This document shows, piece by piece, positions 21,001 to 24,000 of a stretch of DNA of 64,000 bases. The position numbers were made by a program. This stretch comes from Escherichia coli (GTDB lineage: Bacteria > Pseudomonadota > Gammaproteobacteria > Enterobacterales > Enterobacteriaceae), in the NCBI RefSeq assembly GCF_036507355.1, contig NZ_AP027877.1. One strand, given 5' to 3'. Position 1 is the stretch's first letter. Every line of letters starts with the position of its first letter.

Positions 21001-24000
21001 ATTTCTGGTGATATTCTATGGGATTATTATTTTACATGATATTCCCTACCTGATTGCTAAAAAACGTAATCATCCTCATGCCGACGCCATTCATGTTGCT
21101 GGTTGGGTGAGTCTTTTTACGCTGCATGTTATCTGGCCATTTTTGTGGATTTGGGCCACGCTTTACCGCCCGGAGCGGGGATGGGGAATGCAAAACCATG
21201 ACTCCTCCGTTGTGCAACTACAACAGCATATTGCCGGGCTGGAGAAACAGCTCGCCGACATCAAATCCTCTTCTGCCGAGTAATACTTATGGATTTACTG
21301 ATTATTTTGACCTATGTGGCTTTCGCATGGGCAATGTTTAAGATCTTCAAAATTCCCGTAAATAAATGGACCATTCCCACAGCGGCCCTGGGTGGAATAT
21401 TTATTGTCAGCGGTCTAATTCTGTTAATGAACTATAACCATCCGTATACCTTTAAAGCGCAAAAAGCGGTTATTTCTATTCCTGTTGTCCCACAGGTGAC
21501 TGGTGTGGTGATTGAAGTGACGGATAAGAAAAATACGCTGATTAAAAAAGGTGAGGTGCTATTTCGACTGGACCCGACGCGTTATCAGGCTCGGGTGGAT
21601 CGGCTGGTGGCGGATATCGTTACCGCAGAACATAAACAGCGGGCGTTGGGCGCAGAGTTAGATGAGATGGCGGCGAATACTCAGCAGGCAAAGGCCACGC
21701 GGGATAAATTCGCTAAAGAGTATCAGCGTTACGCACGTGGCAGCCAGGCGAAAGTAAACCCGTTTTCAGAACGCGATATCGATGTGGCGCGGCAAAATTA
21801 TCTGGCGCAGGAAGCCTCCGTAAAGTCATCGGCGGCGGAACAAAAACAGATCCAGAGCCAGCTGGATAGCCTGGTGTTGGGTGAACATTCTCAAATCGCC
21901 AGCCTGAAAGCGCAGCTCGCGGAAGCAAAATATAACCTTGAGCAGACGATAGTGCGTGCGCCGAGCGATGGTTATGTGACCCAGGTACTGATTCGTCCGG
22001 GTACCTATGCCGCGTCGCTGCCGCTACGTCCGGTGATGGTGTTTATACCCGATCAGAAACGACAAATCGTGGCGCAGTTCCGTCAGAACTCCTTGCTGCG
22101 ACTGGCTCCTGGCGACGATGCGGAAGTGGTGTTTAATGCTCTGCCAGGTAAGGTATTCAGCGGTAAGCTGGCAGCCATTAGTCCAGCCGTTCCCGGCGGA
22201 GCTTATCAGTCGACCGGCACCTTACAGACGTTAAACACAGCGCCGGGTTCAGATGGCGTTATCGCGACCATTGAACTGGATGAGCATACTGATTTGAGCG
22301 CATTACCAGACGGTATTTACGCCCAGGTGGCGGTCTACTCTGATCATTTCAGCCATGTCTCGGTGATGCGCAAAGTACTGTTACGCATGACCAGCTGGGT
22401 GCATTACCTTTATCTCGATCATTAATCTTCGCTTTCCGCCGCTTGTTCAGGCCGCAGTTGCTGCGACTGAGCAAGCTGGTGGCGAATTTCACGCAGCATT
22501 TCATCCAGCACATACTGGACCCGCCAGGGCTGGTATTCCCGTTTACGGAAGATAGCCACCAGATCCAGCCACCATTCATACGGGTGCTGAAGCAGGGCAC
22601 CAGCGTGCCGTCTTGCAGGTCGCTCTGCACACTTTTGTCTGGCGCAAACACAATCCCCAGGTGATTTCGTGCCAGCTCCAGCGCAGATTGCGTGTTGTCG
22701 CAAACGTAATTTCCCTTCACGCGATAATCCCGCACCTCTTTACTCCCGGCGACGTTGAAGCGCCAGATATTCGCGTCGTCGATCATCATCGAGTCGATCA
22801 AAATACAGGAGTGATGTTCGAGTTCGTCAGGACGGCTAATAGGATGTTTCTCAAGATAGCGCTGGCTGGCATAAGCGGTTACGGCATATTGTGTAATAAA
22901 ACTGGCAACCAGCGATTCATCTTTTGGTGGAGCGTAGCTGATTAAAACATCACAATCATCAGGAAATTCGACGCCTTCATAAAAGGCATTACGCTCAAGA
23001 TTGCAGGTTTTTAGCGATAAGGTTATATCACCGATATCTTTAATTTTATCGATTACATGTTTGGATAAATAGGTAATTATGCCGGTTGGGGCGTAGATGG
23101 TGACCCGACCACGTTTCTCATGCTTATAATCTGCAATAAAATTATTAAGCTGCTCGTTTCTGTCCAGCATGTCGTTGATGTACGGTAACAGCGCGGTACC
23201 AAAAGGTGTGAGCATCAGCTGCCGGGTGGTTCGGTCAAAGACTTTTAAACCCACTTTTGATTCAAAATCAGCAAGGTATTTGCTGACGTTGGCCTGTGCG
23301 ATGCCAAGTACAGTCGCGGCATGGCTGATATTTTCACTGGCAGCGATTACCGAGATAATTTTTAACTCCCGGTACTTAAGTTGTAATTTTGTCATCGCAA
23401 CAGCCCAATTATATATAATTTTATATATTACTATATAAATATGAATCTTGCACCGGAGAAATTGTAAGCATTACTATGCCGACTCTTTTTTATCTTATTT
23501 TAAAATGGAATACCGGACATGTTAATTAACCGCAATATTGTGGCGTTATTTGCGTTGCCTTTTATGGCAAGCGCAACTGCTTCTGAATTATCCATTGGTG
23601 CTGGTGCGGCTTATAATGAATCGCCTTATCGCGGTTATAATGAAAATACAAAGGCAATTCCCCTGATTAGTTATGAAGGTGATTCTTTTTATGTTCGTCA
23701 GACCACGTTAGGTTTTATTCTGTCGCAAAGTGAAAAAAATGAACTTAGCCTGACCGCATCCTGGATGCCGCTGGAATTTGACCCTGCCGATAATGACGAT
23801 TATGCCATGCAACAGCTTGATAAGCGTGATAGTACGGCTATGGCGGGGGTTGCCTGGTATCACCACGAGCGTTGGGGAACCGTGAAAGCCTCTGCAGCTG
23901 CGGACGTTCTGGATAACAGCAACGGCTGGGTGGGGGAGCTATCGGTATTCCACAAAATGCAGATAGGTCGTCTGTCGCTGACACCTGCGCTGGGCGTTCT

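Follow-up and report, generated by a model that had tools for sequence, protein, structure and literature searches.

A gene for a LysR-type regulator in Escherichia coli appears to change reading frame shortly before its 3' end, which raises the question of whether it has been broken by a genuine mutation, has been misread during sequencing, or still yields a working protein in an altered form. The gene lies within a stretch of 64,000 nucleotides, the whole of which was analysed and is referred to here as the window. The answer that we regard as very probable is a real, recent and clone-specific spontaneous 1-bp deletion that makes the gene, yiaU, a pseudogene.

Identity and reading frames of the yiaU gene

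Megablast of window positions 22350–23450 retrieved a gene annotated as yiaU ("LysR family transcriptional regulator") in 3775 of the 5426 complete RefSeq E. coli genomes, with a best identity of 99.4% and always with 1102 reference bases aligned to 1101 query bases. In strain 504211 this gene is 975 nt long and is located between yiaV and yiaT; its counterpart in the window occupies the same position, between intact copies of both neighbors, and this location together with 99.4% DNA identity marks it as the yiaU orthologue. The megablast result, the annotation of the matching genomes and the Pfam matches described below all agree with the first-pass annotation, made from the sequence alone, which had named the gene as yiaU and its product as a LysR-type regulator. 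The genes and reading frames present at the locus are listed here.

21289–22425, plus strand: yiaV, HlyD-family protein, intact, convergent neighbor of yiaU (ORF list, comparison with strain XJ34)
22422–23395, minus strand: remnant of yiaU (lpsR), 99.4% identical to yiaU of E. coli 504211, with one 1-bp gap
22349–23395, minus strand: run-on ORF of 348 aa, 269 native residues and a 79-aa out-of-frame tail (ORF list)
22422–22589, minus strand: native C-terminal segment stranded out of frame, 55 codons (QHPYEWW…AAESED) and a stop (ORF list)
23519–24259, plus strand: yiaT, MipA/OmpV outer-membrane protein, intact, divergent neighbor of yiaU (100% amino acid identity to YiaT of XJ34)

The remnant spans 974 nt on the minus strand, one base less than the 975 nt (324 codons and a stop) of the intact gene, just as had been noticed at first reading, and the 1-bp deletion that had been proposed to shift the frame near the 3' end is visible in the alignment with yiaU of 504211. 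Owing to this deletion, at 22590–22591, the gene lacks a single uninterrupted 324-codon frame. The run-on ORF starts with the ATG at 23395 and ends at 22349, again on the minus strand, and the first 269 of its 348 residues are those of YiaU. The C-terminus is found in the second frame, where positions 22422–22589 read QHPYEWWLDLVAIFRKREYQPWRVQYVLDEMLREIRHQLAQSQQLRPEQAAESED followed by a stop, and a 93-aa ORF on the minus strand (22422–22703) has the native YiaU C-terminal peptide as its C-terminal end. The run-on ORF continues to the first stop codon of the shifted frame, which it reaches inside the convergent yiaV, after overlapping the 3' end of that gene by 77 nt. Its out-of-frame tail of 79 residues contains 6 Cys and 5 Trp, as against 5 Cys and 1 Trp in the 269 native residues, so that these two amino acids make up 14% of the tail and 2% of the native part; the ORF list and the composition of the tail thus bear out the initial description of a gene in two frames with a Cys/Trp-rich run-on. 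The promoter region and the start codon are undisturbed. Taken together, we interpret the window gene as a frameshifted allele, or pseudogene, of yiaU.

A layout in two frames is also what programmed recoding would produce, in which full-length YiaU would come from ribosomes that slip by –1 here. The layout is what speaks for this explanation; however, the surrounding sequence (G CTT CAG) does not fit the X XXY YYZ pattern of a slippery heptamer, and yiaU is encoded in a single frame in close relatives and in thousands of E. coli genomes, so that recoding is extremely unlikely.

Another pair of genes in the window resembles the neighbors of yiaU: yibI-yibH (11861–13359) and yiaW-yiaV (20960–22425) are paralogous pairs, each encoding a DUF3302 protein and an HlyD-family protein, which share approximately 73–77% protein identity and are located 9 kb apart.

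Exact position of the deletion

In the pairwise alignment with the yiaU region of strain 504211, the window differs by three substitutions and one gap, and the gap falls within the T run of CTGC-TTCAG, where the window reads GTGCCCTGC-TTCAG and 504211 reads GTGCCCTGCTTTCAG. The gap is placed identically in alignments with XJ34 and with nine further relatives, which gives the following site.

22590–22591, minus strand: frameshift site, plus-strand AA (coding TT) in place of AAA/TTT in relatives, codon Phe269 (alignments)

The shifted codon at position 269 is TTC and still encodes Phe. Such a spontaneous 1-bp deletion probably arose by slippage within the T run of codon 269, which has gone from TTT to TT.

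The first-pass annotation had located the lesion 4–5 bp away, in the GGG run at 22595–22597, and had suggested alignment with yiaU of other strains as a check. Such alignments do reveal a 1-bp deletion, but they place it in the adjacent A/T run at 22590–22591; the GGG/CCC run has three bases both in the window and in the aligned relatives. Because the deletion lies in the A/T run, the peptide that had been reconstructed for the intact protein, DGTLVPLLQHPYEWW, is wrong, and the intact sequence is DGTLVPCFQHPYEWW. Adding one T back to yiaU restores a clean 324-aa ORF (…VPCFQHPYEWW…), and the repaired protein is identical to a YiaU allele that is very common in E. coli, with 45,523 indexed blocks in a public collection. 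An exact look-up of the earlier reconstruction (…VPLLQHPYEWW…) in that collection found no record. Repair of GGG to GGGG at 22595–22597 was therefore rejected, given that the run has three bases in relatives and that the …VPLLQ… protein is on no record.

Sequencing error as an alternative explanation

The deletion could be an error of sequencing or assembly, in which case the true genome would have AAA and an intact 324-aa yiaU, and the missing base would be one instance of systematic homopolymer error. This possibility had been raised at first reading, where the lesion was counted as the second homopolymer frameshift in the window. In its favor, the site is a short homopolymer, and the window genome is not among the complete RefSeq genomes that were searched, in which the best identity is 99.4%. 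Against it, a run of three bases is not a typical site of error. Many similar 1-bp homopolymer indels would be expected across an assembly of this kind. We compared the window over approximately 60 kb with its nearest complete genome, that of E. coli XJ34 (NZ_CP098231.1), which is approximately 99% identical.

The alignment of window positions 5165–49644 (44.5 kb) with XJ34 contains only eight gap openings. Single uninterrupted frames in the window were found for 49 of 52 XJ34 reference proteins; the other three proteins correspond to yiaU and to two genes that have each lost 11 bp (at approximately 4569 and at 5473), in neither case through a homopolymer slip. In this comparison yiaU is the only window gene with a 1-bp frameshift, and the other broken genes are those with the two 11-bp deletions, which leaves no second homopolymer frameshift in the window.

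Between 48645 and 64000, the sole indel inside a gene with respect to XJ34 falls in bisC, in which the run at 52792 is GGGGG in the window and GGGG in XJ34. A frameshift of bisC in the window was considered and rejected: the window ORF is intact (777 aa), and the lesion belongs to XJ34, in which the gene is annotated as frameshifted. The 71-mer of the window around this site matches 2253 genomes with at least 99% identity, and with 100% identity among the matches listed. The frameshifted bisC of XJ34 is found at L005 4102–6434. Two other differences from XJ34 are located at 29513–29524: ysaA lacks 9 bp at its 3' end, without loss of frame, and a T run just beyond its stop codon differs by 1 bp.

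Systematic error of the kind proposed would be expected to resemble what is present in one related assembly, GCA_900607805.1 (L030). In the equivalent of window positions 20861–20994, three homopolymers within a stretch of 135 bp have each lost 1 bp there, in and just upstream of yiaW. That assembly seems to be one of long reads with homopolymer errors, and it contrasts with the window.

One of the two 11-bp deletions can be counted on the side of error. A deletion of 11 bp (GCCAGTGCAGC) at approximately 4569 (4546–4586) splits the gene for a YadA-like trimeric autotransporter adhesin into two ORFs on the minus strand, one of 256 aa (4546–5316) and one of 1462 aa (198–4586). The deletion is missing from five otherwise identical datasets (L006–L009 and L011), and it is either private to the window genome or a fault of assembly; an exact look-up of the 256-aa fragment in the public collection found no match, which fits a lesion private to the window genome. 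The second deletion of 11 bp, at 5473 (5457–6032), lies between TTAATGTC direct repeats and shortens a hypothetical protein that has 227 aa in XJ34; the resulting form of 191 aa is encoded on 10 contigs, which include an isolate assembly as well as short-read and metagenome assemblies.

Occurrence of the deletion in other datasets

If the base had been miscalled, other datasets from this clone would not be expected to lack it. We found the deletion, with identical flanks, in three other assemblies. A Logan short-read contig from ERR3330519 is 100% identical to the window over 5950 bp, a contig from SRR31122001 is 99.983% identical over 5950 bp (one SNP), and the NCBI assembly GCA_016660925.1 matches the window at 100% identity along 6137 bp; the deletion is included in each case. 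The 348-aa protein is encoded on both Logan contigs, and the exact protein has been deposited as BED20366.1, encoded on a contig of 4,643,937 bp. Since ERR3330519 does not have the 11-bp adhesin deletion of the window and SRR31122001 has a SNP of its own, neither dataset is a copy of the window assembly. The datasets were taken as separate on the basis of accession prefixes and such small sequence differences, and the evidence is at the level of assemblies. The presence of the same deletion in three other datasets, together with the lack of any other 1-bp frameshift in a window gene, argues against the systematic sequencing error suspected at first reading, and we consider sequencing error in general to be largely refuted by the other datasets and very unlikely.

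The deletion is also rare. A 71-nt probe across the site had no full-identity match among the 3771 complete RefSeq E. coli genomes with the region, in which all matches fell into the 95–99% or the 90–95% identity band. Four relatives (L022, L023, L025 and L027), which differ from the window by 4–7 SNPs over 6.1 kb, have an intact AAA, and the deletion is therefore recent and confined to a narrow clone.

It had been proposed at first reading that a 348-aa reading in other E. coli yiaU genes would count against a deletion. Such a reading does exist in other genomes, but its carriers with this lesion are members of the clone, and 348 aa is no normal form of the protein; one unrelated strain reaches 348 aa by way of a different yiaU frameshift. 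Judging from the sequences compared, the 348-aa reading in clone members supports a real mutation and not 348 aa as a normal form of the gene.

Domain composition and predicted consequences

We conducted domain analysis of the 348-aa product and of the intact protein. Two Pfam domains were recognized in the window protein.

23198–23371, minus strand: HTH_1, LysR-type DNA-binding domain, intact, residues 9–66 (PF00126, E = 7.9e-13, the same as in the intact protein)
22598–23113, minus strand: LysR_substrate domain, shortened, residues 95–266, profile positions 5–170 of 209 (Pfam)

Both matches lie within the 269 native residues. HTH_1 scores 48.6 bits, above its cut-off of 26.6, as is expected of a LysR-type transcriptional regulator (LTTR). 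The LysR_substrate match (PF03466), at 45.4 bits, is also above its cut-off but is incomplete: in intact YiaU it covers residues 95–302 and profile positions 5–206 of 209, and the window protein loses approximately the last 36 of these positions, the remainder of the domain being encoded out of frame. Residues 270–299 of YiaU align with a solved LysR-family chain, 3szp_A, up to chain residue 284 of 291, and the replaced segment is therefore part of the folded protein rather than a disposable tail.

These observations suggest how the deletion would act. The frameshift exchanges the last 55 residues of YiaU, which comprise the terminal part of the LysR substrate-binding domain together with the C-terminal tail, for 79 unrelated ones. 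From general knowledge of LTTR structures, we infer that loss of this segment would disturb folding or oligomerization and abolish function. The most likely result would be a misfolded or non-oligomerizing YiaU, with yiaU being a pseudogene in the clone, and inactivation of the regulator is accordingly the outcome that the sequence most likely points to.

A different outcome is conceivable: the 348-aa product could be synthesized and go on regulating through DNA binding, with altered properties (effector-blind, constitutive or dominant-negative), and selection could have retained it in the clone. The intact HTH, the retention of effector-domain residues 95–266 (approximately 80% of that domain), the undisturbed region upstream and the persistence of the allele in several isolates of the clone are all consistent with a functional variant. 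However, the tail is abnormal in its share of Cys and Trp and runs to the first stop of the shifted frame, which lies inside the convergent yiaV, and the lost segment falls within the folded part of the family, as the alignment with 3szp_A indicates. Persistence is a poor sign of selection in a clone as tight as this one (0–1 SNP in 6 kb), and independent yiaU lesions in other strains, along with the absence of the gene from approximately 30% of genomes, fit neutral decay. The unusual composition of the tail, the shortened domain and the pattern of independent decay thus all disfavor a functional variant, and we consider it unlikely. The more specific proposal of an adaptive variant, whose stable 348-aa product would keep DNA binding, lose effector response or oligomerization and rewire yiaT and waa, is distinctly improbable.

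Inactivation of YiaU remains the preferred reading, and what it would entail can be predicted from work on E. coli BW25113, in which YiaU, tentatively named LpsR, has been examined by ChIP-exo and RNA-seq (PMC9068703). The divergent yiaT was reported to be under YiaU control, with a log2 fold change of 2.8 in the yiaU knockout relative to the wild type, and waaPSBOJYZU was reported to be activated by YiaU; in the yiaU mutant, density in stationary phase and microaerobic survival of oxacillin were affected (PMC9068703). By analogy with K-12, loss of YiaU would be expected to de-repress yiaT and to lower expression of the waaPSBOJYZU LPS-core operon. Both the loss of function and these regulatory effects of the deletion are predictions from such comparisons, under which the window clone would probably be a natural lpsR-null. 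If YiaU/LpsR acts here as it does in K-12, the clone would be a natural lpsR mutant in which yiaT may be up, the waa operon down and sensitivity to oxacillin increased under microaerobic conditions, which is a modest, strain-level point.

For annotation, the label should be frameshifted yiaU pseudogene, in place of the "transcriptional regulator" of 348 aa that the deposited record gives. The lesion is to be left uncorrected, and it is no sign of poor assembly.

Comparison with yiaU in K-12 and other strains

Inactivation of yiaU is found in other lineages as well. The gene is undetected by megablast in approximately 30% of complete E. coli genomes (the complement of the 3775 of 5426 in which it is present). 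The yiaU of XJ34 is a pseudogene in its own right, with an internal stop (L004 22771–23745), and the protein of another strain (P0002, longest contig 5,167,819 bp) reflects an independent 1-bp deletion in a GGGG run of yiaU near codon 246 (…ARNHLG|LCLRQT…). The resulting frameshift in P0002 leads into the –1 frame that the window gene also takes and reaches the stop that terminates the window ORF, again giving 348 aa; both it and the nonsense codon of XJ34 are independent events, at positions and in lineages other than those of the window. Sporadic decay of yiaU is therefore unremarkable. The gene is non-essential and dispensable, and its deletion in the window is an ordinary strain-specific gene inactivation with nothing novel about it.

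The surroundings of the gene are those of annotated E. coli genomes on one side, with the same arrangement aldB-yiaW-yiaV-yiaU-yiaT, and differ beyond yiaT. There, K-12-type genomes such as 504211 have sugar genes of the sgb/ula type, whereas the lineage of the window has a cassette between yiaT and ysaA (24392–28808) whose products are a glycoside hydrolase of family GH127, a transporter of the MFS type and an AraC regulator. The GH127 protein of 656 aa is cut to 596 aa by a single SNP in SRR31122001. The gene itself is the same LysR-type transcriptional regulator gene as yiaU of K-12 (b3585; tentatively renamed LpsR), and with one T gone from codon 269 the YiaU of the window has 269 native and 79 out-of-frame residues in place of the 324 of intact YiaU.
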